A stretch of DNA of 64,000 nucleotides, from NCBI GenBank assembly GCA_028716045.1, contig JAQUQO010000001.1, positions 64,942-128,941 on the forward strand, read 5' to 3'. The notes below the pieces were generated by a model that worked only from the letters and a program-made list of their open reading frames with translations, did no database searches and was not told where the DNA came from. The first letter of the stretch is position 1; each line of letters begins with the position of its first letter. A program made the translations under genes and the position numbers. Shown one piece after another: positions 10,146-52,482 of this stretch. Source of the stretch: Patescibacteria group bacterium (lineage in GTDB: Bacteria > Patescibacteriota > Patescibacteriia > JAQUQO01).

Positions 10146-10748
10146 ATGACTAAATACAATAAAGACATCTTTAAAAAACACAGCGGGTGGGGCGAGGATA
10201 TAAGCGATTTTATAATTGAGCTGGTGAAAGTGGTGATTATTTCTTTGATAGTCATTGTCCCGGTCAGGTATTTTTTGATACAACCCTTTTACGTTAAAGG
10301 CGCTTCCATGGAACCGAATTTTTATGACCACGAATATCTGATTATTGACGAAATCTCTTATCGGCTGGAAATGCCCCAGCGAGGCGATATCGTTGTTTTT
10401 AAATATCCGCAGGACCCCAGCCAGTATTTTATCAAAAGAGTTATTGGTTTGCCGGATGAGCGGATTATTGTGAAAGACGGAGGGGTTTATCTTTATGATG
10501 AGAACAAAAAACAGGAGATTCTCCTGGACGAAAGAGATTATTTGAGCGCGACAGTTTTAACCCCCGGGAGAATTGATATAGAATTAGGCGAGGGAGAATA
10601 CTTTGTTTTGGGCGATAATCGCAGTTCCAGCCTGGATTCCCGAACTTTCGGCCCGATAGCTGAACCCTTTATTGTCGGTAAGGCCTGGATTAGGGGTTGG
10701 CCGTTTAATAAGATAAAAATTTTTAATAACCCAAGTTATAATCTGTAA
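10146..10748 (+). CDS. lepB: Signal peptidase I
   Basis: An N-terminal TM helix, the catalytic Ser box GASMEPNF, a Lys box near RVIGLPDE, and GDNRSSSLDSR. Confidence 0.9.
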   Translation: MTKYNKDIFKKHSGWGEDISDFIIELVKVVIISLIVIVPVRYFLIQPFYVKGASMEPNFYDHEYLIIDEISYRLEMPQRGDIVVFKYPQDPSQYFIKRVIGLPDERIIVKDGGVYLYDENKKQEILLDERDYLSATVLTPGRIDIELGEGEYFVLGDNRSSSLDSRTFGPIAEPFIVGKAWIRGWPFNKIKIFNNPSYNL

Positions 10749-13089: not shown

Positions 13090-14844
13090 ATGCTTGTCAA
13101 AAAAAAGTTATTTTTAGAGATAACTGTCCTAACGGTATTTTTTGTCGTGACGGTTATTTTTTTATTTCCCTATTTTGTCCAAGCGCAAGTTGACACAGGA
13201 CTGGGTTATTTAGAAAGTTCCGGTTTGGCAGTTACCGATATCAGAATAACCATCGCGCGGATTATCCGTATCGCTCTCGGGCTTTTAGGGGCGATCGCCA
13301 CGGTGATAATTTTATATGGCGGATTTCTTTGGATGACCGCCGCCGGCAATGAGGAAAAAATGGAGACCGCCAAAAAAATTTTAAAGAACGGGGCTATTGG
13401 ACTGGCGATAATTATTACTTCTTTTTCCATCGCCAGTTTTGTTTTAAATTCACTTCTTAGGGCCACGGGCGTTACGGTCGGGGGCGGGGAGACGCCGGCA
13501 ACGGGCGCGGGCGGCGGGGGTTTGGGGTTTGGCATTATCCAAAGCCATTATCCGGCCCGCAATGCCAAAGAGATACCTCGCAACACAAAAGTTGTCGTTA
13601 CTTTCAAAGAATCAATCAAGGCAGATACTCTTATTAAAGACGGGGCTGATGAAGGCGAAATCCCTGGAGATTCACTTTCTGATCGTCTGATTACCACCAG
13701 CGTGCGTATTATTAAAAAAGGCGACTCCTTTCAAACGGGACCGTTTGTAGAGGCCTCGGCCATGGCAACAAGCGATAATAAAACTTTTGTTTTTAAGCCC
13801 TTGGATCTTTTGGGCAGTTCCTCTGTTTCTACTGATTATATCGTTCTTCTTTCTAATGACATCAAGAAAGCGGATGGCAAAAATGCTTTTAGCGGCGCCG
13901 ACCGGTGTGAAAATAATTCGGGGGTATATTGTTGGGGGTTTACCGTGAGCACTTTTGTTGATATCACCCCACCCCAAGTGGTAAATGTTTTTCCGGCAAA
14001 CGATTCCGAGGGCAAAAATCCGGTAGCGCGGAACGCCGTAGCGCAGATAAATTTTTCCGAACCAATTGACCCTTTGTCCGCCGCTGGCGTCTTTCCTCCC
14101 TTTGAGAATATTAGCGTAAAGGAAAATGGGGTGGCAAAAGAGGGTGGATATAATATAGGCAATGAGTACCAAGCAGTGGAATTTATTCCCAATGTTCTTT
14201 GCGGGCAGAATTCCTGCGGGCAAGATGTTTTTTGTCTGCCGCCCAACGCTCAATTAACAGCTTTGGCCAAATCAATTGACCCGGAAAAAGTGAGTTTCCC
14301 GTACGGGGGAGTGGTTGATATGTGTGACAACCCCTTGGATGGCGACGGCGACGGGGCGGTTGATAAAAAAGAAGGAGATAATTATCCGGATAATTATTCC
14401 TGGTCTTTTGCTACCAGCGATGAGGTTGATTTAACCTCGCCAGCCGTAGAAAAAATAATTCATCAAAATAAAGATAATACCGGAGAATTCATCTCTCCGC
14501 CGGATGGCGTGAGCGATATTTTGGATAATATTAATAAAACAGAACCCATAGAAATATATTTCAGTAAAGCGATGATGGTTAGTTTAATAAATAATTCTAA
14601 CGTGGTCATCGAGCCGCAGGACGCTAAGTGGTATGGCTGGTTTTACCCGATTTCTAAAAATGAAAGCGTGGAAGTTGATGGCCGAACGTTAAGGAAAACG
14701 CGGACCAGCTTAAAACACGATATCTTTTTTGAATCCAGCGGTTATTGGCCGAGTATTTCTTCACAGCTTAAAGATGTTTACCAAAATTGTCTTTGGGACT
14801 CGGCGAACAAGAAGGTCCCCGGTCCGGAGATAGTGACGCCGTAA
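13090..14844 (+). CDS. Membrane-anchored extracellular protein with N-terminal VirB2/TrbC-type pilin-like two-helix domain and Ig-like region
   Basis: After a signal/TM comes GLGYLESSGL...IRIALGLLGAIATVIILYGGFLWMTAAGNEEKMETAKKILKNGAIGLAIIITSFSIASFVL (helix-loop-helix, res about 36-122), then a Gly linker and beta-rich domains. The N-domain is paralogous to that of the next gene. Confidence 0.65.
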   Translation: MLVKKKLFLEITVLTVFFVVTVIFLFPYFVQAQVDTGLGYLESSGLAVTDIRITIARIIRIALGLLGAIATVIILYGGFLWMTAAGNEEKMETAKKILKNGAIGLAIIITSFSIASFVLNSLLRATGVTVGGGETPATGAGGGGLGFGIIQSHYPARNAKEIPRNTKVVVTFKESIKADTLIKDGADEGEIPGDSLSDRLITTSVRIIKKGDSFQTGPFVEASAMATSDNKTFVFKPLDLLGSSSVSTDYIVLLSNDIKKADGKNAFSGADRCENNSGVYCWGFTVSTFVDITPPQVVNVFPANDSEGKNPVARNAVAQINFSEPIDPLSAAGVFPPFENISVKENGVAKEGGYNIGNEYQAVEFIPNVLCGQNSCGQDVFCLPPNAQLTALAKSIDPEKVSFPYGGVVDMCDNPLDGDGDGAVDKKEGDNYPDNYSWSFATSDEVDLTSPAVEKIIHQNKDNTGEFISPPDGVSDILDNINKTEPIEIYFSKAMMVSLINNSNVVIEPQDAKWYGWFYPISKNESVEVDGRTLRKTRTSLKHDIFFESSGYWPSISSQLKDVYQNCLWDSANKKVPGPEIVTP

Positions 14845-14871: not shown

Positions 14872-17800
14872 ATGAAATCGCGAAAGCTAACAATTAAAAT
14901 TTTATTGGCCGCAAGTTTATTGCTGGCAATTTTCTTTTTAGGGAAACCCGTTTTGGCCCAAGTGGACGCTGGTTTGGGTTATTTGGAACAGTCGGGGCTG
15001 GGGACGGCTGATATCAGGGTGACTATTGCCAATATCATCCGCATAATTTTGGGATTTTTAGGCACTCTGGCGGTAGTGATTGTTTTAATTGGAGGTTTCA
15101 AATGGATGACCGCCGCCGGCAATGAGGAAAAGCTGGCCGGGGCTAAGAAGTTGCTTCTTAACGGAGCTATTGGTTTAGTTATTGTGCTATTTTCTTTTGG
15201 TATTGCCAGTTTCGTAATTTCCAGATTGATGCAGGCGACTGGCGGGGGAGGAGGCGGCGTTGTCGGTGGCGAAGTCCCCGGCGGCGGGGTTTTTTATCCC
15301 AACAATTTAGTAGTGAAAAGTATTACTCCGCAGGGGCCGGTGCCCATTCGCAATGTTAAGGTCAGAGTAATCTTTAACAAAGAAATAAAACCGGAGAGTG
15401 TGACGGGGAAAATAGAAGTAAGGAGGGCGAATGATGATTCTGAAGCAGCCGGCAATTTTGATATTGGCTCCCGGTCGGTGGAATTTTCGCCGTCAGCGGC
15501 TTGCCCCGAGCCTAATCAAAATTTAAAATGTTTTGATTCCAATACTGAATATCGGGTTGAGATTAAAGAAGGGGTCAAAAGTGCTGATGATAAAGATTTA
15601 AAATGCGGCGGCGCTTATCCTAAGTGCAATGGATTTTTTACCACTGGCGATTTAGTTGATGTCACTCCGCCCACGGGGGTAATCACCAACCCCGATGACG
15701 GAGGAAGCTTTAGTGTGGACGATTCAGTTCTGCTTCAGGCGGCAACCAAAGATGACAGCGGTATCGGCCTCGTGGAATTTTATGTTGACGGCCGTTTGAT
15801 TGATAGCGACGGGCCGGAGGGGCCGACGGCGTCAACTTATCTTGCCGAAGGATATTGGGAAACGGCGGGCGTGGAGCTTCTGTCCAGACATGAAATTTAT
15901 GCTCAGGTTTTTGATATTAACGACCACAAAACAAATACGGATAAAATTTACGCTCTCGCCCGGGCCAAACACTGTTTTAACGGGATTAAAGATGAAAAAG
16001 AAGAGGGCGTGGATTGCGGCGGAGAGCGCGAGGCCAAAGATTATTGCGGCGCCTGCGCCGGTGGTGATTGCGACCGCGCGGACAAAGACGCCGGGACCTG
16101 TGCCGCGCCAGACAATACTTTTTGCGCTTCGGGATATTGTGAATCAACAACCTGTAAATGTCAGATTCACCTGAAAATATCTAATATCTACTCCGGAGAT
16201 AAAAATGATTTTGCCGGCCTGAACCCCAATGGTTCGCCGGGCAATTATTTAACTATTAAAGGAGAAGGTTTCGGGCGTTCCTTGGGGCAAGTGATTTTTT
16301 TAGGCAGCGACCTTTCTTCGGACGATAAAATAGCCGCGCTCGCGTCTTGCAGTTCTGCTTGGCAAGATAAGCAGGTAGTAGTGGAAATTCCGGCCGGCGT
16401 GGTCGATGGATCAATTAAATTAATTACTGGCAATAAAGCCGAGGACAGCACGGATGACGCCTATGGGCCGATTATCAATGATTTCCAGTTAAATGACAGT
16501 AAACGTCCTGGCATCTGCGAAGTTTCTCCGCGCGAAGGAGTGGAGGGCGGCGATTTGAATATCAGCGGCAAAGGATTCGGCGACCAAGCAGGCGCTTTAT
16601 ATTTCGGCTCGGAAATTTTGAAAAAAATAAACAGCTGGCAAGACGGTAAGATTTCCTCGGTCATTCCCAATTTTAATTTAGGGGATTACTTAGTTTTAAT
16701 AAAAGCCGGAGAAGAATTTAGCAACGGCGTCAATTTTTCTTTAATTGAGGGCAAAAGTGTCGGGCCGCATGTTGATTATCTAAATCCGGAAAAAGGGAGA
16801 AAGGGCCAATATGTTACCATTGTCGGTTCGCGTTTTGGCAGTGGCCAAGGAACAGTCAATTTTATCAACCGGGCCAAAGGCAATGCTATTTTAGCCAGTA
16901 CTGATTTTCCGGCAGCTTGCCAGAGCAGCTGGTGGCGCGATAATTACGTGATTGTCCGCGTTCCGGAGATTGGTGATGGAACTTACGACCTAGTTTTAAC
17001 CACCGCCAAAAATCGCGACAGCAATCCCGTTCCCTTTGAAGTGACTGGCGATCCTTTAACGCCCGGCATTTGTAATTTGAATCCTGATAATGGGCTAGTG
17101 AATACCAAGGTTAATATCAGCGGCGGGGGATTTGCTTCATTAGGCAGTGAGAGCCGAATTGATTTCTGGCAAAATAAAAAAGCCGAAGCGGTTTCCTGGA
17201 GTGATGACAAGATATTTACCACCGTCCCCCCGGATACCCAGACCGGTCCGGTGTTTGTGACAAGCAATGAAAAAAAAGACGGGGCTAACCTCGTAAGCAA
17301 TCGTATTCCTTTTCGAGTAGGCGCGTGCGAAAAAGATTCTTGCTTGGAGGGGGAAACTTGTTGCGGCGACGGTATTTGCCGCGGAACTTGTTTTGATGAA
17401 ATCAGTAAAGCCAAATATCGCTGGTATTTTAATACCGGAGAATTGCCGAAAATTCCTCAAGTGGTGGAAGAGTGCGCGGCTAATTCCGCGCCCAGTCCTG
17501 TGCCCTTTTCCAAATTTGGCAATACCGACGTTTGTCTTAATGTGATTCCCTCGGCTCGTTTCAGCGTGCCGATGCAATACGAAACTTTAATTAAAGAAAA
17601 TATTCTTTTTGAGGAATGCGCCACCGGAGCGGAGGGGAAGATGATTTGTATTCCGGTGGAGGATTATTCCATAGCGATTTCCAGTTCTAAGGATTCCGAA
17701 TCAGGAAAAGACAGATTTGAGATTTACCCTGGCGGCAAAGGTTCGGGCGTTAATTTAAAATCTAATACTTCTTACAGGGTGGTTCTAACCACGGCTTTAC

Positions 17801-20800
17801 GCGGAGCGGACACGGAGGGAAAGACCGGCGCCAATATGATTGCCAATGTGGAAGAATGCGGTCAGGGCAATGCTTATTGTTGGGGATTTAAAACCGGCGA
17901 CAAGCTTTGCGATATCGGGGATATCAATGTTCTCCCGTCACCTAACACCCTAAGAAGCGCCGACGCGCAGAGCGATTATGAGGTTGTGGTTCGTGCTAAG
18001 GATAATTCTTGCTGGGGAATAAATCCGTTCGCTTACGACTGGTGGTGGATAATTGCCGACCCGTCTAAGGCCGATGTCACTAACGCAGAGTTGGATGGTA
18101 AGGGTCTGCCGGAGCAGATAGTCACGGCTAAAAATGAAACCCTGCCGGACAGACCTACGCAAGTTATGGCCGATACTGAAGACAAACTCGGCGACGGGGA
18201 GTTGCACATCAATTACGCTTTTCCGGCGGTCATTAATCATTCGCCCGCGTGCCAAAACGGAATTTGCTCCAACGCGGAGATTTCCGCCACTTTCAATGTC
18301 CAATTGGAAAATTATGAAGACAATATTCTGCTTTATAAATGCGCTGAAGAGAGCTGTAAATATTTAAGCGAAATTCCGGTGGCTTATACGTCGGAAAAAA
18401 TCGCCAAGACGGGCGGGGAGGAAGTAAATGAAAAAATTACGCTGACCATTCTCGGTGAAAATGAGTTTTTAGAGAAAGATACCTGGTATCGCGTGCAAGT
18501 TAAGGGCGGGGATAACGGCGTCAAATCAAAGGGCGGCGAGCGCAGTTTAATCGGCGGAAATGATGGCGCTGATTATTCTTGGAAGTTTCAAACGCGCGAT
18601 AACGATAAAATTTGCGACGTGGAACAAGTTGAAGTGTTTCCGAGAAAAACCACTTTATATTACATCGGGCAGAGAAAAGAATTGACGAGTTCCGTGTCGG
18701 GTCCGGAAGACGCTTGCGGCAATGGGCAAAGTTTAGCGGTCAGAACAAATAACCCCGACACCGGCGCCAGCTTGGATAATTATAATTGGCAATGGGAAAG
18801 TAGCGTGCCGAATTTAGTGACTCTCACGGGCAGCGCTCTCGGCAGAGTGGCGCCATGGGACGGTGAATTAATTGATGCTAATCCCATAATTGGCGGGGCG
18901 TGTTCTTCAAAATGCCTGCGCGTTGGTTCTAAAACCGGCGGAGCGATTTGCGGCAATGGGGTTTGGGAAAAAGGCGAAGATTGCGATGGCGGAGGGGGGT
19001 GTTCGGCAAAATGTCTTAGCGCCGGTTCAGTCAGTCCGGCGGTTTGCGGCGACGGCTATATCGGCGCTCCCGATAAAAAATACGAATATAAAAATTATCT
19101 GACTGACCTAAGAGCCGGGAGGTTACCCGCTGATTTTAAATCTTTCGGCGAGGAGTGCGACGATGGCAAACATTGCGCCAATGGGGCTTATTGCAGTAGC
19201 GACACTGAATGCGAGTTGGTAATGAGGGGGTTCTGCGGCACGCCCGCCAATTTTGAGTTATGCAAAGATAATAATTGGGCCACTTTTGATAAAGACGGCA
19301 AAAAATTAGAATCCATATTGGATAAAAAATGTCAGCCTCGTTCCAGTGATAGTTGCAGTGGGCAGTGTCTAAATGAAGGAGCGGCTTTTGAATTGGGTAC
19401 CTGCGGCAATGGGCAAATCGGCGGAGGAGAAGATTGTGACGATGGCAATCGCCAGCCGGGCGACGGTTGCAGCGCGGCTTGTCTTAATGAAGGGTCAGCG
19501 GCAGGGGCGGCGGTTTGCCAAAATGCGATAGTCGAAAGCAAGTGGGAAGATTGCGACGAGGGCGCTGGAAATAATCCCGCCGCCGGTTGCAGTAATAGCT
19601 GTTTAAACGAAGGGTCAAGGGTTACTCCTTGCGCTTATTTTTTTGATAAAATTGTTTGCGGCCGGCAAGGATATTGTCAGTGGGACGAGATGAGTGAAGA
19701 TGACCCCAGCGATGACCTTTGCGTTTATAATAATGTTTGTGAAAGTAAAACCGAAATTAAGTGCCTTGGCCTTGAGGCTTGTCGTTGGGTAGATAACGAA
19801 TGTCATAAGGCCATCTGCGGAGATGGCGCGGTAGATATCAGCGAGGATTGCGATGATGGCAATTTAAGAGCTGGCGACGGTTGTAGCGCAAAGTGCGTTA
19901 AAGAGGGGGCATCTTTAACTTATACCAATGCTTCGGTCTGCGGCGATGGAGAAATCAAGACGGGTGAAGAATGCGATTCCGGCAGTGGCGACGGCAAGAA
20001 AGACCCGTATCAGGCGGTGACGGCCATTGATTCTACTCCTACGTCGGCGATTATTAAGGCCAGCGTGAATAATGCGGCGGGGAAGAAAATTTCTTGCGAT
20101 GGTGAAGGATGCGCCGAAGTAGAAGTGGTTTGCGTTTGTAGCGATGATGATTATTGTGAAGGATATTCCGAGAATTTGGCCTGCAATCAGGTGAATCGCT
20201 GCTGTTATCCGCGGCCGACCATAGTCGCGGTAAAACCAGCTCACGATAACGACCCCGAAGAGCCAAATGCCTGTCCCAATGGAGTTTTAGAAGTAGAGTT
20301 TGACCAACAAATGGACTTGGCGAGCCTGGCTGAAAATATTAAATTATATCATTTACAATTAAATACTCCCTGCAATCAAGAAGCTTTGTCTTGGCATGAG
20401 AAACTTGGCAAGTGGGCGAAAAACATGTTTGCCAAAATAGGTCTGGCGGCCGTTCCGGAATACTGGTGTCCGGTGGCGGGAGCGGTGCGAACCGTCACTT
20501 TGGATAACGGGGGCAATAAAATAAATAAAGCGGAGTTTGTTCCTAACGATATTTTAGATGTTAATAATACTTATCGTCTGTTTGTAAAAATAGACAATGA
20601 GACCACTGCCGCCATTACCGAAGGCGTGCGCAGTTTGACTGGAGGGGTGGGGGTTAAAGAAGTAGACGCCGCGGGCGGCAACACACATTTTAAAATAGAT
20701 GAAAGCACCGGCAGAATGGAAGAAAGTTCCGGCAATTTTGACCGTTATTTCTTCGCGCATTTTGTCACCGGTATGGAGATTTGCCAGGTGGAGCAGGTTG

Positions 20801-23800
20801 TTTTTAAACGGCCGGCAGAGGGAGGTAAAGTAATTGACCCTTATATTTTTAGAAGAGCTGCTGACGAAGAAATTTTTGAAGTGGAGGCACAAACGGAGAA
20901 CGGTCAACCCTTGCGGCCCTTTCCCGAATATCATTGGTCATGGAGTTGGCAGCCAGGTGAGACCGGTTTAGTTAAAGTTTCCAGCCAAGACAAATATTGC
21001 AGCATCACCAAAAAGGATTGTTCTGATAAAGAAGTCGGCACTCAATGTTCTGTCGCGGACGGCATTTGTGTTTTAAGTGATATCCAAACGATAACGCCGG
21101 AAAATAACAGCGGAGATACGACACTCACGGTGACCGCCGAGATACTGAACGATGAATTAAATAAACCCGCGACTAAAGGAGAGAAAGTGGAAGGAGTTAT
21201 TGATATCAAGAATCGTATTTGCGAGAATTTGTGGTCATCAGCGCAGAACGATGAATATAAATGGCTGGAGGCCTCAACGTATCTTTTCGAATCAGACCTT
21301 TTAAAAATATCACCCATTTCTGGTAATTTTTCCACTTGGTATTGCCGCGATGCTGGTAATCCGGATAAAACCGAAGATGACTTACCGGATTTAAATATAA
21401 TTACAGTGGCCGAAGAAGGGACTGGTATCAGAGAATATTTGTTCAAAGACCCCTCCACTCCCGCCGCGGTTGGCTTTAGAATTTTACCCAATCTTAAACA
21501 TTTATCGCTTTTAAATTGGTATAAAGAGCAAGAAGGATTAAGCGGCAATCCGCAGACGATGGGGACCATTGACGGGTATTCAGCTCTTCGCGACGGCAAC
21601 ACTGTTTATATTAATTTTGCCAACAACAGTACCAAATGTTTTAACGCGGACTCTTGTTTTATTGACGCTATCTATACCAACGTGCTGGCGGTCTCCTTTA
21701 CTGAAACCGGCGGACAAAACATCCAAAATATCTTCAATCAGTTGGTTAAATATCTAAAATTTAATGAAAGTTTTTATCCGCATGGTCCCGGAAGCTCCAG
21801 CCGCTCCTTTTATTCCAATAATGCCATTGCCAATGCCGCCAAAGCTCAACTACTTCGCGATACGCGGCGCTGGGAGGATTTGACTGATATTGCCGCCACC
21901 TTGAATAATTACGCCGAGAATCATAGCGGCCAATATCCAAAAATTGAGGCCGGTTCTTTCCTCCCTGGTTTAACAATCAGCGCTTGGCCGTCTTGGAACA
22001 CGGTTTTGGGCAATAATTTAGGCATGGCTTTGCCCGAAGACCCTAAGAATGAATTTTCCGCTGACTGTTCGGAAGGAACTTTTCTTGATGAGCCGTTTAA
22101 TGCCGCCACTTGCTGGTCAAGCAAAGGAGCTTTCTATTGTCCCCAAAATTCTCATATCTATTGGTATAACCATCGCGCTGATGGGCAATATAATTTGGCG
22201 GGAGAATTTGAATTTAATGCTAACGAGGAAACAGCGGAGTATTTGTGGAGGTTAGACAGCGCAAAACAGAATTATCAGTTGTTAAGAAATATCTATATCA
22301 CCGTTTCTTCTGACGCGGCCGGAGGACCGTCCTGCAATTCCACACCCGCCAGTCCGATAAAGGGCGTTTGCGGTGACGGTTATATTGATTTAAATGAGGT
22401 TTGCGATGGTGCGGGTTATTTTGAAATCAAAGATAATAATAATTACCCTTGCCGCGCTTATTATACTTGTAAGTCGGATTGCTCGGCTAAAATATATAAG
22501 GATTCTTCCGGCAAGGAAGTGGAAATAAAAACATCGTCCGAGGAAACAAATTTAGCAGCGTCCATTTGCCAGTATGTTGGCAGGTGCGGCGACGGAATTG
22601 TCAGTGGTCCCGAAACCTGTGATGATGGTGTGGAACGCAATGGGCAGTATGGTCGTTGCCCGAAAAGTTGCCGGCAGTCTGATGCCGTTAAATGCGGTGA
22701 TTATAATATTGATAAACCATTTGAAGTTTGTGATAAGGGAGGCAAGACAGAATATGGCGGTACTAAGAGAGAAAATTCTTGTCGTTGGGATTGTTTGGCC
22801 TATGGCCCGTATTGCGGCGACAAAGTGGTGGAGGAAGAATATGGGGAAGTTTGTGAATTAGGGGAGATAGTGACTCCACAGGAAAATTGTCCAATAGTTG
22901 ATGGTTATCAGCAATTTAAAAAATATCAATGTAGTTCTGATTGCCAGAAATGGAACTTAGTTGCCGATTGTTCTTCTCTCGGACAGCAGTGCGGCAATAA
23001 AATAAAAGAAGGTACTGAAGAATGCGATGACGGTAAAAATACGGGAGATAAGGATCAAAACGGCATTCCCGATGGTAATGAAGACGCTTGTAATAATGAT
23101 TGTAAATTAACTGTTTGCGGGGACAGTAAAATTCAAAATCCCAATGGGCTGGGGCAGAAAGAAGAATGTGATTTGGGGGCGGGAGTCAATGGGGTGAGTT
23201 GTCGAGAAAAATTGCCTTATAGTGAAGGAATAAATGAAGCTCCGCAACAATGCACTTATTGCGATGCCAATTGCCGGAGCGTGCGCGTCCAGGGCCCATA
23301 TTGCGGTGACGGAATAATAGATGTCGGCCACGAAGAGTGCGACGGCAATAATAATCTGGAATATTGCGAGGACGGAATCAGGGTAAGAAAGCTGACTTGC
23401 AATAATTCCTGCGATTGGGATAAGGGCAAAGAGTGCGAATACGTCGGTGAAGGAGAAAGCTGCACAGTTGGCGGCGGAGACGAGCAGGTTTGCGATGCCG
23501 GAATGGGTTGTGTGAATGGCAAATGCCAGAAATGTTTTGATAATAATGGTCGGGTTAAACCGGAATGTCAAGCGGTCAGCGGTTTTATTAAACCCTTTGA
23601 TTATTGCACTAACAATTCTCAATGTTTGCAGGCCTATGATTTGAGTTGGAAATGCTCGTCCGCGCTTAAACTTTGCTTGCCGGAAACTATAATAACTGCC
23701 GGTCTTTATGGGAAGTCCTGCCCGGGCGGTTTAACCCAACATGGAGGTCTTTGCTATTATCGGGCTTCAAATAATCAAGTCACGGACGGCAAATGCCCGA

Positions 23801-25203
23801 CATTAAATATGGACTTGCTGTTAAACCGAGGAATAAAGCAATTGGAATTTGAAAAATTTAAAGGCCTAGCCAACAATCCAATAACTGGAAATTTTGTTTT
23901 ATGCGTTTTTGACGCTGAAAATTATAAGAAGAATATTTGTAGCAGTTCCGCTTGCGGTGGCGATTGCGGGCATGCGGATAATAGTTGGTCGGATTTTTGC
24001 CCGTCAGCTAGACCAAACAGCGACCAACCGAATGAACAATGTTCGGGTGGTTCCTGTAATCAACAGTCGGGGAGTATCTTGGGTAAATTTAGCTGTCGTT
24101 ATACAGATACTTGTGGCAATTCGTGTTTGCTGACGGGGTTTGGTTGTTGCAATGGTTCTGTCTATGATTTAGGGGTGGAAAAATGCGAAAATAATCAAAT
24201 ACTTTGTCAGGAAACAGGCAGTGGTCAGACAGACAATGTGCCACCGGAAGATAAAATGGATTCTTGCTATAATAAATGTTGCGATAACGATGAGTATTGC
24301 TCTTCTGCCACTCAATCTTGCGTGGAATGTGAGAAAGACAACCATTGCAGTGATAATGATAAAGATAAGTTTTGTGTTAATTATGAATGTGTGGAATGTC
24401 GGGAGAATGCTAATTGTATCGGCGGAAAAATTTGTTTAAATAATCAATGTGCCGACGCGCCACAGTGCCAGGTTGACAGTGATTGTAAGGTAATGGGGGC
24501 AAATGCAAAATGTGTTAATAAAAAATGTGGGTGCTCCTCCAGCTGTTCAGGCAAGCAGTGCGGTGATGACGGTTGTGGCGGGGATTGCGGAGAGTGTCGG
24601 GAGAGCTGGAGTTGTAGCGGTAATACGTCAGTACACAAAACATCGTCTTGTAAGAATAATCAATGTACAGAAGAGCGGATTGATTGTAGTAATAAGGGTG
24701 GATGCGATTCAGCGACTGGTAAATGTAAGGGTTGCACATCGGTGGAGCATACTTCCAAAAACGCCGTTAAATATACTAAATGTTTTGATGGTGACGCTTG
24801 GTGGGTGGATGGTTGCGGTCAAAAAGATGGTCTTTATGAAAATTGCAGTGATGTAGAGATTTGTGAGAAGAATGAGGCCGAGCCGGCGGGATGTGAGTGT
24901 AAATACGGAGATTGTACTTCAAATGTTTGTGTTCCTCGACCGGGCCTAGAACTTTGTGTGGAAGGAACATGTACTTATCTTCGCGAGTGTGTTTATGGTT
25001 GTTTTACGGAACCGCGGCAATGCGATAACGTTTGTTATGGCGGCGAATGCGTTGAGTGCAATCCGAAAGGCACCTCTTGCCATAATACGACGTCAACGGA
25101 CGGGGCTTGTAATGGAAGAATATGCGAGATTTTAGGATGTCAAAAACATTGGGTTTGTAATACTGCCGGTAAAAAAGTTTATGAGTGTGGTAGTTGTCCA
25201 TAA
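14872..25203 (+). CDS. Giant (3443 aa) secreted cysteine-rich adhesin-like protein with N-terminal pilin-like anchor, IPT/TIG repeats and Myxococcus-type Cys-rich repeats
   Basis: It is a single uninterrupted 10.3-kb ORF. The N-terminal domain is paralogous to 13090 (…LIGGFKWMTAAGNEEKLAGAKKLLLNGAIGL…). There are at least 4 IPT/TIG-like repeats (…GNYLTIKGEGFG…, PGICEVSPREGVEGGDLNISGKGFG…). Repeats of CG(D/N)G..x..E(E/D)CDDGN...GDGCS..C follow across about 18.9-20.2 kb. The C-terminal 900 aa are packed with CxxC/EGF- or follistatin-like cysteine knots. Confidence 0.8.
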   Translation: MKSRKLTIKILLAASLLLAIFFLGKPVLAQVDAGLGYLEQSGLGTADIRVTIANIIRIILGFLGTLAVVIVLIGGFKWMTAAGNEEKLAGAKKLLLNGAIGLVIVLFSFGIASFVISRLMQATGGGGGGVVGGEVPGGGVFYPNNLVVKSITPQGPVPIRNVKVRVIFNKEIKPESVTGKIEVRRANDDSEAAGNFDIGSRSVEFSPSAACPEPNQNLKCFDSNTEYRVEIKEGVKSADDKDLKCGGAYPKCNGFFTTGDLVDVTPPTGVITNPDDGGSFSVDDSVLLQAATKDDSGIGLVEFYVDGRLIDSDGPEGPTASTYLAEGYWETAGVELLSRHEIYAQVFDINDHKTNTDKIYALARAKHCFNGIKDEKEEGVDCGGEREAKDYCGACAGGDCDRADKDAGTCAAPDNTFCASGYCESTTCKCQIHLKISNIYSGDKNDFAGLNPNGSPGNYLTIKGEGFGRSLGQVIFLGSDLSSDDKIAALASCSSAWQDKQVVVEIPAGVVDGSIKLITGNKAEDSTDDAYGPIINDFQLNDSKRPGICEVSPREGVEGGDLNISGKGFGDQAGALYFGSEILKKINSWQDGKISSVIPNFNLGDYLVLIKAGEEFSNGVNFSLIEGKSVGPHVDYLNPEKGRKGQYVTIVGSRFGSGQGTVNFINRAKGNAILASTDFPAACQSSWWRDNYVIVRVPEIGDGTYDLVLTTAKNRDSNPVPFEVTGDPLTPGICNLNPDNGLVNTKVNISGGGFASLGSESRIDFWQNKKAEAVSWSDDKIFTTVPPDTQTGPVFVTSNEKKDGANLVSNRIPFRVGACEKDSCLEGETCCGDGICRGTCFDEISKAKYRWYFNTGELPKIPQVVEECAANSAPSPVPFSKFGNTDVCLNVIPSARFSVPMQYETLIKENILFEECATGAEGKMICIPVEDYSIAISSSKDSESGKDRFEIYPGGKGSGVNLKSNTSYRVVLTTALRGADTEGKTGANMIANVEECGQGNAYCWGFKTGDKLCDIGDINVLPSPNTLRSADAQSDYEVVVRAKDNSCWGINPFAYDWWWIIADPSKADVTNAELDGKGLPEQIVTAKNETLPDRPTQVMADTEDKLGDGELHINYAFPAVINHSPACQNGICSNAEISATFNVQLENYEDNILLYKCAEESCKYLSEIPVAYTSEKIAKTGGEEVNEKITLTILGENEFLEKDTWYRVQVKGGDNGVKSKGGERSLIGGNDGADYSWKFQTRDNDKICDVEQVEVFPRKTTLYYIGQRKELTSSVSGPEDACGNGQSLAVRTNNPDTGASLDNYNWQWESSVPNLVTLTGSALGRVAPWDGELIDANPIIGGACSSKCLRVGSKTGGAICGNGVWEKGEDCDGGGGCSAKCLSAGSVSPAVCGDGYIGAPDKKYEYKNYLTDLRAGRLPADFKSFGEECDDGKHCANGAYCSSDTECELVMRGFCGTPANFELCKDNNWATFDKDGKKLESILDKKCQPRSSDSCSGQCLNEGAAFELGTCGNGQIGGGEDCDDGNRQPGDGCSAACLNEGSAAGAAVCQNAIVESKWEDCDEGAGNNPAAGCSNSCLNEGSRVTPCAYFFDKIVCGRQGYCQWDEMSEDDPSDDLCVYNNVCESKTEIKCLGLEACRWVDNECHKAICGDGAVDISEDCDDGNLRAGDGCSAKCVKEGASLTYTNASVCGDGEIKTGEECDSGSGDGKKDPYQAVTAIDSTPTSAIIKASVNNAAGKKISCDGEGCAEVEVVCVCSDDDYCEGYSENLACNQVNRCCYPRPTIVAVKPAHDNDPEEPNACPNGVLEVEFDQQMDLASLAENIKLYHLQLNTPCNQEALSWHEKLGKWAKNMFAKIGLAAVPEYWCPVAGAVRTVTLDNGGNKINKAEFVPNDILDVNNTYRLFVKIDNETTAAITEGVRSLTGGVGVKEVDAAGGNTHFKIDESTGRMEESSGNFDRYFFAHFVTGMEICQVEQVVFKRPAEGGKVIDPYIFRRAADEEIFEVEAQTENGQPLRPFPEYHWSWSWQPGETGLVKVSSQDKYCSITKKDCSDKEVGTQCSVADGICVLSDIQTITPENNSGDTTLTVTAEILNDELNKPATKGEKVEGVIDIKNRICENLWSSAQNDEYKWLEASTYLFESDLLKISPISGNFSTWYCRDAGNPDKTEDDLPDLNIITVAEEGTGIREYLFKDPSTPAAVGFRILPNLKHLSLLNWYKEQEGLSGNPQTMGTIDGYSALRDGNTVYINFANNSTKCFNADSCFIDAIYTNVLAVSFTETGGQNIQNIFNQLVKYLKFNESFYPHGPGSSSRSFYSNNAIANAAKAQLLRDTRRWEDLTDIAATLNNYAENHSGQYPKIEAGSFLPGLTISAWPSWNTVLGNNLGMALPEDPKNEFSADCSEGTFLDEPFNAATCWSSKGAFYCPQNSHIYWYNHRADGQYNLAGEFEFNANEETAEYLWRLDSAKQNYQLLRNIYITVSSDAAGGPSCNSTPASPIKGVCGDGYIDLNEVCDGAGYFEIKDNNNYPCRAYYTCKSDCSAKIYKDSSGKEVEIKTSSEETNLAASICQYVGRCGDGIVSGPETCDDGVERNGQYGRCPKSCRQSDAVKCGDYNIDKPFEVCDKGGKTEYGGTKRENSCRWDCLAYGPYCGDKVVEEEYGEVCELGEIVTPQENCPIVDGYQQFKKYQCSSDCQKWNLVADCSSLGQQCGNKIKEGTEECDDGKNTGDKDQNGIPDGNEDACNNDCKLTVCGDSKIQNPNGLGQKEECDLGAGVNGVSCREKLPYSEGINEAPQQCTYCDANCRSVRVQGPYCGDGIIDVGHEECDGNNNLEYCEDGIRVRKLTCNNSCDWDKGKECEYVGEGESCTVGGGDEQVCDAGMGCVNGKCQKCFDNNGRVKPECQAVSGFIKPFDYCTNNSQCLQAYDLSWKCSSALKLCLPETIITAGLYGKSCPGGLTQHGGLCYYRASNNQVTDGKCPTLNMDLLLNRGIKQLEFEKFKGLANNPITGNFVLCVFDAENYKKNICSSSACGGDCGHADNSWSDFCPSARPNSDQPNEQCSGGSCNQQSGSILGKFSCRYTDTCGNSCLLTGFGCCNGSVYDLGVEKCENNQILCQETGSGQTDNVPPEDKMDSCYNKCCDNDEYCSSATQSCVECEKDNHCSDNDKDKFCVNYECVECRENANCIGGKICLNNQCADAPQCQVDSDCKVMGANAKCVNKKCGCSSSCSGKQCGDDGCGGDCGECRESWSCSGNTSVHKTSSCKNNQCTEERIDCSNKGGCDSATGKCKGCTSVEHTSKNAVKYTKCFDGDAWWVDGCGQKDGLYENCSDVEICEKNEAEPAGCECKYGDCTSNVCVPRPGLELCVEGTCTYLRECVYGCFTEPRQCDNVCYGGECVECNPKGTSCHNTTSTDGACNGRICEILGCQKHWVCNTAGKKVYECGSCP

Positions 25204-25906: not shown

Positions 25907-25944
25907 AAATATAACATACAATTTATTATTTAATTTTAATTCTT

Positions 25945-26649: not shown

Positions 26650-26685
26650 TAAAATGTTTAAACTTTAGGCAGTGAGGCAAGTTTT

Positions 26686-45910: not shown

Positions 45911-48661
45911 ATGTTTAAACAACATAAAAAACTCATTCTATCCTTAATCTTGTCCGCGACGATAATTATCGCGGGCGGTTTTCTTATCGGAAATTTTGTT
46001 CACGCGGAAGACCCAGCGGCCACCATAAAAGACAGCTCCACTGCCACGATTCTTCGACTCACCCTCGGTTACATAGTGGAACTTTTTATTTTTCTTGGCG
46101 GTCAGCTTTTAGTTTTACTTCTGAAAGTTTTAAAACTTTTGGCCGGTTATAATGATTTTATTCGCGCCGAACCGGTCCAGTTGGGTTGGGTGGTTATCCG
46201 CGATTTAAGCAACATGTTTTTTATTCTCATCTTGCTGGTTATCGCTTTTGCCACCATCCTGCGGGTGGAATCTTATCAATATAAGAAACTTCTGCCTCGC
46301 CTTCTCATCATGGCGATACTCATAAATTTTTCCAAAACCATCTGCGGATTGTTTATAGATTTTGGGCAGGTGATAATGCTCACTTTTGTCAATGGGTTCG
46401 CGGCGGCTACGGATGTCAATCTTACTGTTGGCTTAGGTATTGATAAAATATTATCCCTGCCGAAAGATTCCTCGGCCACGGTTAATGCTTTAACTATAGT
46501 GGCGGCGTATCTCTTAGCTTTGATTTATATTGTAGTCACTGTTATAACCGTCGCCATTATTTGCTTTACGCTGGCCTATCGCATCGTGATGCTTTGGATT
46601 TTAGTGGTGCTTTCCCCTCTGACTTTTTTATTAAGCGCTTTTCCGCAGGGGCAGAAATTCGCTTCGCAATGGTGGGATGAATTTTCCAAGACCATTGTCA
46701 TCGGTCCGATTTTAGCTTTCTTTTTATGGCTATCTTTGGCGGCCATGCAACCAGCGGCGGATAATCCCAGAAACTCCAGTTTAACCAGGACATTAACCAC
46801 CGAGCAAGAAGAGGATGTGGGAGAAACGGCAACTGGGGACACCGTTTCGCGAGCCATTAGCCAAGCTGACGACTTGAGTGTTTTTGCCACCTTTATTGTG
46901 GGTATCGCTTTAATGTGGGGTGGTATTTATATGTCGCAGAGAATCGGAGGTGAAGTTGGTAGTTTTGCCTCTGGTAAGGCCAGGCAATGGTCGGTGGGTG
47001 CGGCTAGAGGAGCAGCAGGCGCGGCTAAATGGGCCGGCGGTAAATTATGGGGTGGGACGAAAGTTGGAGCAGGCGCACTTGATAGATTGCAAGGGGGCGT
47101 AACGGGCATACAATTCTCTAAAATTCCCGAAAGAATTAAAGCCGGGTTTGCTACCAAAAAAGAAATGGAGGAAAAAGAGATTGCCAAGAAGGCCTTGGCA
47201 ATTCAGCGCCGGGGAGCCGGAGCTGGTTGGTTGCCGGCGTATATGGCGTTTGCCACTCCGGACAAAGCTATTATGGAATATGGTGGTGTGAAGGGAAGAT
47301 TAAAGGCGGCTAATCAAACTCGCCGCATTTTACCGGGGTTGGAGAGTTATAGACAGAAAAAACAGGAAGCGGATATTAAGAGAGCTGATTATAAAAAATT
47401 AGAGGGCGAAAATAAAACGTTGACTGATAAAATAGAAAAACAAGCTGATTTAGAAAAAGAACAGAAGATTTCAGCTGAGAATTTTGGTAGGTTCGGTACT
47501 TCCACCGTGATGTTAGACAAAGTAGGAGACAGAGATATTATTGAAAAATTAGAAGAAGAAAGGGAGCGATTAAGGATACAAGCCGGTGTTCCCGGCGCAA
47601 GCGGAAAAGATAAAAAAGAATTTGAGTATTTAGACGCGATTTTAAGCACTCCCGAAGTTAAACTTTCCGCTTCGGAGTTTAATAAATATGTCGGCAATAA
47701 AAATCCTCTCGCTTTTGAAAATGAAAGGAGTAGGGTGAAAAAAGAAAAAGACAAAGCAGAGGAAAGGTTAAACAGATTTATCGCTAATAATCCCGGATTC
47801 ACAAGAGGAGAAGCAGAAAATACAATAAAAACTAACCAAAACGTAATAGGAAATATTAAAGAAGATGTGAGAAGGATAGAATCGGAATATCTGCCTAATA
47901 TTCCCAAGCATTTAGTGTTTGATGTGGAGGCCAAAAAGGCCGAAGCCGAAGCGCTTAAAAATATTCCGTCCACCGCTGGCTTTCCGGATTTAATGAGAGC
48001 TCTGAAAAAGGCTTTGGCGGATGGTGATGCCTCTACCGCCAACGTTATTTCTAAAAAATTGAGTGAAAATGGGCAGATGGGCGATATGTTGAAAGAAATG
48101 GGTAAAACAGAAGATATAGCTGGTTTTAAGGAGTTTGTTGATAAGGAGCTTTTAAAGGTTAATAAGGACGATAAAAATGCTGCTTATAGTGTTGGCAGTG
48201 AAATGAGCTTGTATGCGGAAAAATCCGGTGACGCCGTTTATGGCGGCATATTTAGAGCAGATCCATCAACCGGTAAGGTTGATGCCGTCAGTGATAATGA
48301 GGCGGTTGATATTATAGCCAAAAGAATATCCAGTAAAGACGCTTCCCAAGCCGTTAAAGTTAAAATATCTTCTTATGTTAAAACGGATATTTTAGGGAAA
48401 AAGAGTTTAACTCCTTTGGGAGCGACAGTGGTTTCTACTTTTGCTCCCGATTTTGAAAAAATGATTTCTAAAGGAACTTTTCCTCCGGCTTTACAAAAAG
48501 CCTTGAGAGATGTTAAGGGCAGTATTGAAAAAATTGTTGGAGTTGGCACATTAACTAAAGAATTGGCCGATAAAATAACCGCGGTGGGTTATGCCACCGG
48601 AGAAGAAGAAATACCGCCTAAAGCTGCGGATTTAATCGCAAAATTGACGGGAGGCCCGTAA
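45911..48661 (+). CDS. Polytopic membrane protein, VirB6/TrbL-like, with about 600-aa charged coiled-coil C-terminal extension
   Basis: A signal or first TM helix, then about 6 TM helices within res 40-290. The remainder is Lys/Glu-rich and predicted helical. Its position at the head of the PrgI-VirB4 block fits VirB6-like, but the topology is only eyeballed. Confidence 0.5.
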   Translation: MFKQHKKLILSLILSATIIIAGGFLIGNFVHAEDPAATIKDSSTATILRLTLGYIVELFIFLGGQLLVLLLKVLKLLAGYNDFIRAEPVQLGWVVIRDLSNMFFILILLVIAFATILRVESYQYKKLLPRLLIMAILINFSKTICGLFIDFGQVIMLTFVNGFAAATDVNLTVGLGIDKILSLPKDSSATVNALTIVAAYLLALIYIVVTVITVAIICFTLAYRIVMLWILVVLSPLTFLLSAFPQGQKFASQWWDEFSKTIVIGPILAFFLWLSLAAMQPAADNPRNSSLTRTLTTEQEEDVGETATGDTVSRAISQADDLSVFATFIVGIALMWGGIYMSQRIGGEVGSFASGKARQWSVGAARGAAGAAKWAGGKLWGGTKVGAGALDRLQGGVTGIQFSKIPERIKAGFATKKEMEEKEIAKKALAIQRRGAGAGWLPAYMAFATPDKAIMEYGGVKGRLKAANQTRRILPGLESYRQKKQEADIKRADYKKLEGENKTLTDKIEKQADLEKEQKISAENFGRFGTSTVMLDKVGDRDIIEKLEEERERLRIQAGVPGASGKDKKEFEYLDAILSTPEVKLSASEFNKYVGNKNPLAFENERSRVKKEKDKAEERLNRFIANNPGFTRGEAENTIKTNQNVIGNIKEDVRRIESEYLPNIPKHLVFDVEAKKAEAEALKNIPSTAGFPDLMRALKKALADGDASTANVISKKLSENGQMGDMLKEMGKTEDIAGFKEFVDKELLKVNKDDKNAAYSVGSEMSLYAEKSGDAVYGGIFRADPSTGKVDAVSDNEAVDIIAKRISSKDASQAVKVKISSYVKTDILGKKSLTPLGATVVSTFAPDFEKMISKGTFPPALQKALRDVKGSIEKIVGVGTLTKELADKITAVGYATGEEEIPPKAADLIAKLTGGP

Positions 48662-51329: not shown

Positions 51330-51767
51330 TTGTCTATCATGCGCCAGTTTGTTGTTCCACAATTTATTGACGTTGAGGATAAAATAATCGGCCCGGTTAC
51401 CGTCAGACAGTTTATTATTATGCTGGTGGACGCGGGGTTGATATTTTTGTCGTATAAACTTTTTGATTTTGCCCTTTTCGTGATAGTTGGATTAATTTTG
51501 TTTGGTATTGGAGGAACGATAGCCTTCCTTAAAGTTAATGGCCAGCCGTTTCATTTTTTTATGTTGAACTTAATCCAAACCTACCGCCGGCCTTGGCTGA
51601 AGATTTGGAACAAGGAACTGGAAAATTGGGAAATAAAGGAAAAACTAAAAATAACGGAAGTGAAATTACCGGAAAAACCCAAAGTTAAACCGAAAATTTC
51701 CGCCTCGCGGCTGGCCGAGCTTAGCTTGATTGTCAATACTGGCGGCGTTTATGAAGGGCAAGATTAA
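51330..51767 (+). CDS. PrgI/VirB3-like small two-TM T4SS protein
   Basis: A 145-aa product with two adjacent TM helices (res about 28-80), then KVNGQPFHFFMLNLIQTYRRPWLKIW. It sits directly upstream of VirB4, matching the VirB3/PrgI position and topology. Confidence 0.55.
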   Translation: MSIMRQFVVPQFIDVEDKIIGPVTVRQFIIMLVDAGLIFLSYKLFDFALFVIVGLILFGIGGTIAFLKVNGQPFHFFMLNLIQTYRRPWLKIWNKELENWEIKEKLKITEVKLPEKPKVKPKISASRLAELSLIVNTGGVYEGQD

Positions 51768-51807: not shown

Positions 51808-52482
51808 ATGCCGGAAAAAACTCCTAAAAAATTAGCCCCATCAACCCAAAAGTTTCTTGATATTTCCGAAATCAGAGATGATTGCGTTATTTTAAAGGAT
51901 GGAACTTTGCGAGCTGTTTTGTTGGCCTCCTCTATCAATTTTGCCCTAAAATCCGAAGATGAGCAGAATGCTTTGATTTCCGCTTATATGAGTTTTCTAA
52001 ATTCTTTTGATTTCCCCCTGCAAATCGTGATTCAGTCACGCAAGCTGGATATTGAGGGCTATTTGGAAAGATTGAAAGATACGGAAAAAACTCAAACCAA
52101 CGAATTATTAAAAATACAAATTGCCGACTATCGCGAATTTATAGCCGAGTTAGTAGAAATCGGAGACATTATGAGCAAGAGTTTTTATGTGGTTATACCT
52201 TATAACCCTCTTACTGATAAACGCAAAGGATTTTGGACAAGAGCGCAGGAACTCTTTACTCCGGCGATAATTTTAAGATTGGGAGAAGATAAATTTCAAA
52301 AAAGAAGACATTATTTGATACAAAGGGTTGGTCATATCCAGTCGGGCCTTGAGAGTATTGGCCTTCATTCGCAATTATTAGATACCCAAAGTTTAATCGA
52401 GCTTTATTATAATGCTTATAATCCGGCAACCTCCAAAGTCCAGAAATTAGTTGAGATAAGCAAGCTTCAAGTTGAGGATTAA
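51808..52482 (+). CDS. T4SS-associated protein; possible detached N-terminal segment of VirB4
   Basis: A 224-aa product, 22 nt upstream of VirB4 in a different frame. Its pattern FLDISEIRDDCVILKDGTLRAVLLASSINFALKSEDEQNALISAYMSFLNSFDFPLQIVIQS resembles the extreme N-terminal region of TrbE/VirB4 proteins, as recalled rather than aligned. Confidence 0.45.
   Translation: MPEKTPKKLAPSTQKFLDISEIRDDCVILKDGTLRAVLLASSINFALKSEDEQNALISAYMSFLNSFDFPLQIVIQSRKLDIEGYLERLKDTEKTQTNELLKIQIADYREFIAELVEIGDIMSKSFYVVIPYNPLTDKRKGFWTRAQELFTPAIILRLGEDKFQKRRHYLIQRVGHIQSGLESIGLHSQLLDTQSLIELYYNAYNPATSKVQKLVEISKLQVED

Follow-up and report, generated by a model that had tools for sequence, protein, structure and literature searches.

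VirB2-like pilin modules with large C-terminal cargo in a Patescibacteria genome: candidate modular minor pilins

A pilin module shared by three large proteins

We analyzed 64,000 nucleotides of DNA from a Patescibacteria group bacterium (GenBank assembly GCA_028716045.1, contig JAQUQO010000001.1, positions 64,942 to 128,941 of the forward strand; hereafter, the window), in which three open reading frames (ORFs) encode proteins of 584, 3443, and 420 amino acids (aa) that have in common a two-helix module of ~90 aa related to the pilins of type IV secretion systems (T4SSs). Translation of the three segments gave one pattern throughout, namely, a hydrophobic helix, GG(F/T)xW(M/L)TA(A/G)G(N/S), a polar loop with AK, (A/V)IGL, and a second hydrophobic helix. 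The proteins scored 38.4 bits (584 aa), 31.6 bits (3443 aa; 28.2 bits in the full-length giant), and 42.6 bits (420 aa, the pilin-SLT fusion) against PF18895 (T4SS_pilin), all above the gathering cut-off of 26.6 bits. Besides, a hidden Markov model (HMM) for which only 120 stand-alone pilins from other genomes had been used and which was run on the 635 six-frame ORFs of the window detected the same three ORFs with E values of 3.5e-42, 4.4e-42, and 1.3e-18, the next best window ORF having an E value of 0.86. Searches of all six-frame ORFs with two HMMs revealed no fourth copy, divergent copy, or small pilin within the window. This bears out the claim of an earlier note on this DNA, made from the sequence alone, that three proteins of the window share the module.

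In the 584- and 3443-aa proteins, the small-pilin HMM aligned over positions 5 to 126 of its 127 positions, and the aligned part takes in the signal peptide and an AxA/Q cleavage site (the slash marks the point of cleavage); therefore, these two proteins contain a whole pilin precursor, and the shared region is longer than the one marked in the earlier note. The gene for the third protein runs beyond the window, and its complete form (L003:8732-9994, 420 aa), obtained from adjoining DNA recovered via the RadA gene, encodes in order a signal peptide (...IVNA/AD), a Cys/Pro-rich stretch of ~80 aa, the module, and the SLT domain. Thus, the N-terminal position given for the module holds for the first two proteins and not for the pilin-SLT fusion, in which the Cys/Pro-rich stretch precedes it (Table 1).

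The fusion partners were as the note had described them, i.e., Ig-like domains beginning with Big_5 in the 584-aa protein, Cys-rich sequence in the 3443-aa protein, and an SLT lytic transglycosylase in the third, where PF01464 matched with 28.1 bits (cut-off, 21.3 bits) and the motifs FQQEN, GVTQLMP, and AGYNGG, which we take to be SLT motifs, could be read in the C-terminal region.

TABLE 1 Features of the window discussed in the text (a)
Feature	Position	Strand	Remarks
Candidate modular pilin 1	13090..14844	+	584 aa; uninterrupted ORF
 Signal peptide	residues 1-32 = 13090-13185	+	cleavage ...VQA/QVD
 Pilin hairpin	residues 33-125 = 13186-13464	+	
 Gly-rich disordered linker	residues 126-143	+	127-142 in the AF2 model
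 Cargo	C-terminal of linker	+	three beta-sandwich (Ig-like) domains, the first Big_5 (51.8 bits)
Candidate modular pilin 2	14872..25203	+	3443 aa; uninterrupted ORF
 Signal peptide	residues 1-29 = 14872-14958	+	cleavage ...VLA/QVD
 Pilin hairpin	residues 30-122 = 14959-15237	+	followed by poly-Gly linker
 Cargo	~3300 aa, extracellular	+	Big_5, Big_7, TIG, DUF4215, myxo_disulf_rpt; 6.3% Cys
Pilin-SLT fusion	62906 to beyond window end 64000 (ORF 62906-63991)	-	first 56 codons outside window
 Pilin hairpin	63569-63841 = residues ~110-200	-	PF18895
 Lytic transglycosylase region	~62909-63424	-	SLT PF01464
Signal peptidase I (S26)	10146..10748	+	Peptidase_S26, 148 bits; four genes upstream of the pair
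Extended VirB6/TrbL-like polytopic membrane protein	45911..48661	+	916 aa; TrbL E = 0.0064, below cut-off; weak
PrgI/VirB3-like protein	51330..51767	+	145 aa; PF12666, 30.1 bits (cut-off, 27)
TrsD/TraC-like protein	51808..52482	+	224 aa; NF041427 TrsD 1.2e-7, VirB4_plasma 7.8e-10, both below cut-off; PF26593 on record
VirB4-type ATPase	52505..54361	+	618 aa; NF045971 CD1110-family, 364.6 bits (cut-off, 325); P-loop_TraG, 95.8 bits
a AF2, AlphaFold2. The pair refers to candidate modular pilins 1 and 2.

In addition to PF18895, PF04956 (TrbC/VirB2) was matched by 46 of 95 family members at an E value of ≤0.01 (best, 5.6e-9), and it is on record for four orthologues of the 584-aa protein (P0179, P0213, P0231, and P0237). 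The assignment to a TrbC/VirB2-type family that the note had made from the topology accordingly holds, and the placement of the family among the VirB2-like pilins of Patescibacteria T4SSs is already published. Judged by sequence comparison, the three proteins are members of the PF18895 VirB2-like pilin family with C-terminal cargo of an extracellular type, and their sizes fall outside the range of 110 to 215 aa of the described members.

Predicted topology and structure

Hydropathy analysis gave exactly three hydrophobic segments per protein, a signal peptide and the two helices of the hairpin. The N termini of the window proteins are ordinary Sec signal peptides with AxA/Q sites, and a polar stretch comes next. 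The part between the signal peptide and helix 1 contains two or three acidic residues and no Lys or Arg, whereas the loops between the helices carry one to three Lys or Arg residues, including the conserved AK(K); Ala-94 and Lys-95 were at least 90% conserved among 82 orthologues. Because the outer segment is acidic and free of Lys and Arg while the loop carries AK(K), this pattern implies that both termini lie outside and the loop inside, and that the cargo is held outside the cell on a flexible Gly-rich linker. The topology check proposed in the earlier note thus came out in its favor.

An AF2 monomer model of the module alone consisted of two long helices with a predicted local distance difference test (pLDDT) score of 84. 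The model of the whole 584-aa protein (pLDDT, 85.5; predicted template modeling score, 0.76) contained a signal helix, helices at residues 51 to 83 and 88 to 125, a linker with a pLDDT of <50, and then three beta-sandwich domains, which in Foldseek searches weakly resembled cadherin/Ig ectodomains and CopC-like Big_5 domains. The hairpin model had no Foldseek match in the Protein Data Bank (PDB) at an E value of ≤0.001, the top entries being CnrX, CHMP4B, and ATP synthase c subunit, and a profile search of PDB chain sequences with the module gave zero matches even at an E value of ≤10.

Conservation of the module and its relation to stand-alone pilins

A tandem array of eight stand-alone pilins (112 to 213 aa) lies in the same genome (L006:8970-12719; GCA_028711565.1, JAQTRY010000002.1); contig JAQTRY010000001.1 of that assembly, a metagenome-assembled genome labeled 'Patescibacteria group bacterium', also encodes the 584-aa protein. 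The array begins with a member extended at its N terminus by Cys-rich sequence and ends with one that has a Cys-rich tail at its C terminus, and a member of 152 aa clearly has the motif, with no Pfam match on record. One member, the 125-aa pilin P0002, shared 51 to 59% identity with the first ~130 residues of the 584- and 3443-aa proteins, mature N terminus included; the other array pilins were 20 to 36% identical to the fused modules. When 481 modules were clustered, a single cluster at ≥45% identity held 28 of the 29 giants, 34 proteins of the ~600-aa type, and 66 small pilins, and all 29 giants joined it at a slightly looser threshold. Other pilin subfamilies rarely bore C-terminal cargo.

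Conservation among 106 orthologues of the 584-aa protein was highest in the hairpin and polar loop (positional entropy, 1.25 to 1.49 bits), compared with 1.7 to 2.4 bits for the cargo and 2.69 bits for the signal peptide, which is equally hydrophobic and served as an internal control for composition; the linker was the least conserved segment. Residues invariant across the family were all kept in the fused modules. Between the two adjacent window paralogues (584 and 3443 aa), the modules were 68% identical and the neighboring Big_5 domains 33%. Moreover, modules of the ~600-aa protein and the giant had an identity of 0.65 within a genome, as against 0.53 to 0.55 for orthologues across genomes, and the giant of the same genome outscored 83% of the orthologous modules (24 genomes). 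The unlinked small pilin tended the same way, with 0.57 within the genome versus 0.49, although this value derives from only 12 comparisons. Going by these sequence data, evolution of the fused modules is concerted within each genome. The duplication that gave rise to the pair is old, since the pair is syntenic in 24 to 26 genomes.

These data bear on the explanation that the module is a membrane anchor only, i.e., that a duplicated pilin gene was reused as a Sec-inserted tether with both termini outside, independently of the T4SS, and that the tethered cargo (an Ig-like stalk or S-layer-like protein, a giant adhesin, and wall hydrolases) never enters a filament. A mere anchor would be expected to drift as the signal peptide does, yet the hairpin and especially the polar loop are conserved and retain all family-wide invariant residues. 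Besides, the fused modules fall into one pilin subfamily that has a stand-alone member in the same genome, and the modules track each other within genomes, with the unlinked small pilin included. Conservation, subfamily clustering, and within-genome tracking, all of them indirect evidence, are together not expected of a passive anchor.

Distribution, synteny, and variety of cargo

We found more than 100 full-length relatives of the 584-aa architecture (pilin, Big_5, and two more beta domains; 32 to 61% identity) in Uhr-, Falkow-, Magasanik-, and Komeilibacteria. A full-length profile of the ~600-aa protein retrieved 2856 cluster representatives at an E value of ≤1e-30 among 1.84 billion; the top 150 matches were all below 1e-159, and nearly all were near end to end, beginning inside the N-terminal pilin region. 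The conservation of the motif in related genomes, which the earlier note had made a point of, is thus evident. On the other hand, the note had called the fusion unusual, and this is overstated for a lineage in which it is widespread; the word fits only in relation to classical VirB2/TrbC pilins and the published literature.

This recurrence also decides whether the fusions are artefacts of gene calling or assembly in which a small pilin was joined to a downstream gene. Such errors do occur, as a one-base homopolymer difference in virB4 between the window and the GenBank record demonstrates; however, the reading frames are uninterrupted, and the architecture recurs in the above-mentioned orthologues and in 26 syntenic loci of different species. 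The explanation was rejected on these conservation data, and we regard it as practically impossible.

Across 80 species-representative loci, a sample biased toward relatives of the fused modules, we counted 470 domain-bearing ORFs, all of them co-oriented: 319 were <200 aa, 87 were 200 to 499 aa, 36 were 500 to 999 aa, and 28 were ≥1000 aa, so that 151 of the 470 exceed 200 aa. A Pfam scan of 84 array pilins of 200 to 499 aa found no cargo domains, and their extra length was mostly an N-terminal Cys-rich extension. Where modules are fused, the cargo C-terminal to them was always of an extracellular type.

The order of genes around the pair was conserved, i.e., S26 signal peptidase, HisRS, a small ORF, YqeY, the ~600-aa pilin fusion, the giant pilin fusion, and TSP3-repeat proteins. 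This succession of genes recurred in other genomes at ~40% identity and was present in 25 of the 26 pair loci among the 80 loci, the S26 gene and HisRS keeping a fixed upstream position there. Giant orthologues ranged from 1115 to >3460 aa and directly followed the ~600-aa gene in 26 loci. In the window, the giant is followed (positions 25217-27672, plus strand) by three membrane-anchored proteins, two of which have bacterial TSP3 (calcium-binding) repeats according to Pfam while the third has none, and TSP3- or collagen-like proteins hold the same position after the giant in other genomes.

The closest relatives of the pilin-SLT module carried a C-terminal SLT, VanY/Peptidase_M15, NlpC/P60, or phage-type lysozyme domain. 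An orthologue of 41% identity showed the same gene order, namely, M48 peptidase, a 205- to 215-aa membrane protein, a PD40-like protein, pilin-SLT, and RadA. Directly upstream of the pilin-SLT gene, just past the end of the window (L003:6841-8730), lie genes for a membrane protein of 205 aa and a PD40/beta-propeller-like protein of 417 aa whose N terminus has a membrane segment, and the order of membrane protein, PD40-like protein, and pilin-SLT is kept in another metagenome contig. In another Patescibacterium (L089:3239-6415), a pilin-NlpC/P60 fusion adjoins a DsbA/thioredoxin-like gene, a neighbor that fits the disulfide-rich extracellular parts of the pilin fusions.

A further explanation is that the module is a pro-domain or export handle directing the precursor to the membrane or the T4SS, and that the cargo is cut off within the Gly-rich linker and then released or passed to the cell wall. 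This would be similar to RP4 TrbC, which undergoes C-terminal trimming by the S26-like protease TraF. A disordered Gly-rich linker right after helix 2 in the 584- and 3443-aa proteins, a peptidase gene at a conserved distance upstream of the pair, and a giant that has no other anchor would all accord with it. However, no cleavage motif was identified, the sequence of the linker is the least conserved, and the S26 gene, with HisRS lying between it and the pair, resembles housekeeping LepB. The S26 gene is probably the housekeeping LepB; a functional link between this peptidase and the candidate modular pilins is a possibility. On the whole, we consider cleavage and release improbable.

T4SS core and genomic context

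A T4SS-like core, which the earlier note had reported for this genome, was confirmed in the window by a VirB4-type ATPase, a PrgI-like protein, a TrsD-like protein, and a weakly matching VirB6-like protein (Table 1); the last has about six to eight hydrophobic segments once overlapping windows are merged. The 224-aa TrsD/TraC-like protein resembles the N-terminal part of VirB4, and the function of VirB4 is thus divided between this protein and the 618-aa ATPase, as described for Patescibacteria T4SSs. The virB4 gene is an intact 618-aa ORF in the window and is split into 214 and 398 aa in the gene calls of GenBank record JAQTRY010000001.1; at ~53085-53091, the window has the homopolymer CCAAAAAAG, one A more than the CCAAAAAG of that record. 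Either an error in assembly or slipped-strand variation could account for this difference.

Directly upstream of the VirB6-like gene lies a second giant (37935-45842, plus strand; 2635 aa) with a signal peptide only and CBM_4_9; it lacks the module and was therefore ruled out as a further module carrier. The gene before it encodes a membrane protein of 294 aa with acidic TSP3-like repeats, a weak subthreshold NCBIfam match to MtsD, and no Pfam match. The genes of the window are otherwise mostly ordinary chromosomal ones, such as those for HisRS, FtsA, FtsZ, RF1, RecG, RadA, DprA, and YbeY. A 589-aa protein (4414-6183, plus strand) consisting of MshEN, the start of a T2SSE ATPase domain, and two FHA domains has an unusual regulator-like architecture and is possibly related to type IV pili.

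Modular minor pilins or membrane anchors

The interpretation that we favor, for which we see about equal grounds for belief and for doubt, is that the three proteins are modular minor pilins that are inserted by Sec, remain compatible with a P0002-type pilin, and display their cargo from the membrane or from a pilus. Sec would insert the precursor, and cleavage at AxA/Q would leave a helical hairpin with both termini and the cargo outside. The hairpin would not be a passive anchor but would retain its compatibility with the stand-alone 125-aa pilin encoded in the same genome, and because of this compatibility the T4SS could draw the fused proteins out of the pool in the membrane and build them into the filament together with the small pilin as rare (minor) subunits. 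The C-terminal cargo would then stick out along the filament or, where a fused subunit was the first to be incorporated, at the tip. The basic residues of the loop point into the lumen in T-, N-, and F-pili (10.1101/2022.04.28.489814), and since this implies that the chain ends lie outside, the cargo would be at the outer pilus surface. A pilus of this kind would gain adhesive and wall-cutting functions aimed at a host bacterium; before or without polymerization, the fused proteins would act as membrane-tethered surface proteins.

We also put forward, as a tentative and rather doubtful extension, that the T4SS builds a heteropolymeric VirB2-type pilus from a small major pilin and modular pilins with giant Cys-rich adhesins, Ig-like stalks, and four classes of peptidoglycan hydrolase.

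Several observations weigh against a role of the three proteins in such an apparatus. PF04956 gave no match at an E value of ≤0.01 in the three window proteins themselves, and the profile comparison called for in the earlier note thus succeeded for PF18895 in all three and for TrbC/VirB2 in relatives only. Fold searches could not tell the pilin hairpin apart from other helical hairpins. Housekeeping genes surround the pair, which ends ~27 kb upstream of virB4 and ~21 kb from the first gene of the T4SS cluster, the VirB6-like ORF at 45911, and the pilin-SLT gene is ~8.5 kb downstream of virB4, on the opposite strand and about 10 genes apart. In 72 related loci, no VirB4, VirB3, or VirB6 gene lay within 10 kb of the genes for the candidate modular pilins or of pilin arrays; T4SS genes looked for beside the arrays and modular pairs of the 80 related loci were likewise absent, and the stand-alone array of this genome is on a contig other than that of the T4SS core. 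With T4SS genes not nearby, the link to the T4SS rests on domain homology, and incorporation of the proteins into the apparatus is accordingly put forward as a proposal from homology. Gene conversion of adjacent paralogues could alone yield concerted evolution and could explain part of the observed pattern, and the low entropy of the membrane helices is partly a compositional effect. Besides, an appendage of 3300 aa would be sterically demanding in a tightly packed five-start filament and tolerable only on rare subunits. A T4SS pilus has not yet been seen experimentally in Patescibacteria; a 2025 review calls a pilus in these monoderms a remarkable possibility that is unproven (PMC12857230).

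Some of these points speak at the same time for the anchor explanation, which is well served by a pair placed in a housekeeping neighborhood (S26, HisRS, and YqeY) in 25 of 26 loci with no T4SS genes within 10 kb, by a generic hairpin fold, and by a ~600-aa protein whose very wide occurrence and conservation resemble those of a structural envelope protein. Big_5/Ig-like stalks are a usual mark of cell surface proteins, and the peptidoglycan hydrolases of monoderm T4SSs are ordinarily held by an N-terminal membrane segment, as discussed in PMC12102498. In view of the conservation and within-genome tracking of the modules, we judge an anchor-only role to be quite possible, though somewhat short of probable.

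Significance

A large part of bacterial diversity belongs to the Patescibacteria, which live attached to other microbes. Their T4SS and small pilins are essential in the sole genetically tractable species; in Southlakia epibionticum, a six-gene pilin array is essential for epibiotic growth (Wang 2023, PMC10633639). The role of the T4SS is enigmatic because a relaxase and a coupling protein are absent. If pilins act as carriers of adhesins and hydrolases, this would provide a concrete function, i.e., attachment to the host envelope and its local breaching, and it would supply a list of candidate determinants of host specificity, among which we count the giants because their cargo varies from ~1100 to >3400 aa between species. 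The principle of modular pilins, known only from type 4 pili, would extend to the unrelated family of conjugative pili. If the heteropolymeric pilus exists, modular pilins would be known for the first time in the VirB2 family, a conjugative-type pilus would serve as a display filament that grips the host wall and breaches it enzymatically, and a mechanism would be at hand for the essentiality of the T4SS and the pilins in epibiotic growth. If, on the contrary, the module is an anchor only, genome surveys could not take PF18895 matches for pilus subunits; proteins other than small pilins account for about one-third of the domain-bearing ORFs in our sample, in which fused forms are overrepresented.

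Comparison with known systems

Stand-alone Patescibacteria pilins (PF18895) are the nearest known proteins, and they share with the window proteins the signal peptide, the hairpin, and the motif GG..W.TA.G...AK...GL; the window modules are 51 to 65% identical to the closest of them. They are only 110 to 215 aa in length, whereas the window proteins add 220 to 3300 aa of C-terminal cargo, and the fused genes of the window lie outside arrays and not beside virB4. VirB2-like pilins were previously identified with PF18895 and PF04956 in 1948 assemblies, often as tandem arrays of 2 to 11 divergent genes (survey by Quinonero-Coronel 2025, PMC12102498). In the available portions of the literature on VirB2-like pilins and F-pilin fusions, we found no description of a pilin domain fused to large cargo. 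Thus, as far as we could find, the domain and the small pilins are known, and the cargo-bearing architecture, widespread in sequence databases, is apparently undescribed. A preprint on a 'novel pilus system in CPR' (10.64898/2026.03.03.709456) was considered as a report of the same system and set aside, as it concerns unrelated Ig-fold donor-strand pilins.

The classical conjugative pilins VirB2, TrbC, TraA, and TraM (PF04956) resemble the module in having a signal peptide, two membrane helices, and a short loop with basic residues, and the mature N terminus of VirB2 (QSAG...) likewise begins with Gln. Unlike them, the window proteins accompany a T4SS of the monoderm type (PrgI, TrsD, and CD1110-type VirB4), which classically has no pilin. 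Membership among the classical pilins would further imply polymerization into a five-start helical pilus with phospholipid at 1:1. To our knowledge, classical conjugative pilins are never fused to large domains.

Membrane-anchored VirB1-like hydrolases of monoderm T4SSs (pIP501 TraG and PrgK) also place an SLT domain outside the membrane by means of an N-terminal hydrophobic segment. The pilin-SLT fusion differs from these in that its anchor is a pilin-family hairpin, a CHAP domain is lacking, and its neighbors are radA and a PD40-like gene rather than T4SS genes.

In design, the window proteins resemble the modular type IV pilins, e.g., PilB and PilC of Streptococcus sanguinis, in which a polymerization module is combined with a C-terminal adhesive module; there, the polymerization module is kept compatible with the major pilin, turning a plain filament into a functional one (PMC8179133 and PMC9934059). 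The proteins and machines are unrelated, and the window proteins have neither a class III signal peptide nor a prepilin-peptidase site, and their mature N termini open with a polar stretch where type IV pilins have the hydrophobic alpha1N helix; the likeness is therefore one of analogy and not of membership.

The sole NCBIfam match of the modules was the Mbov_0395 family (NF045849) of Mycoplasma integrative and conjugative elements (ICEs), covering 62 to 71 of 80 positions with 19.9 to 36.8 bits, below the 40-bit cut-off. Like the window proteins, this family belongs with a monoderm T4SS, but it is a stand-alone protein of 80 aa. The VirB4 of the window also resembles a Mycoplasma ICE ATPase. 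Together, these two resemblances suggest that the pilin-like gene is perhaps native in monoderm T4SSs and was not borrowed from diderm systems, an origin considered in PMC12102498.

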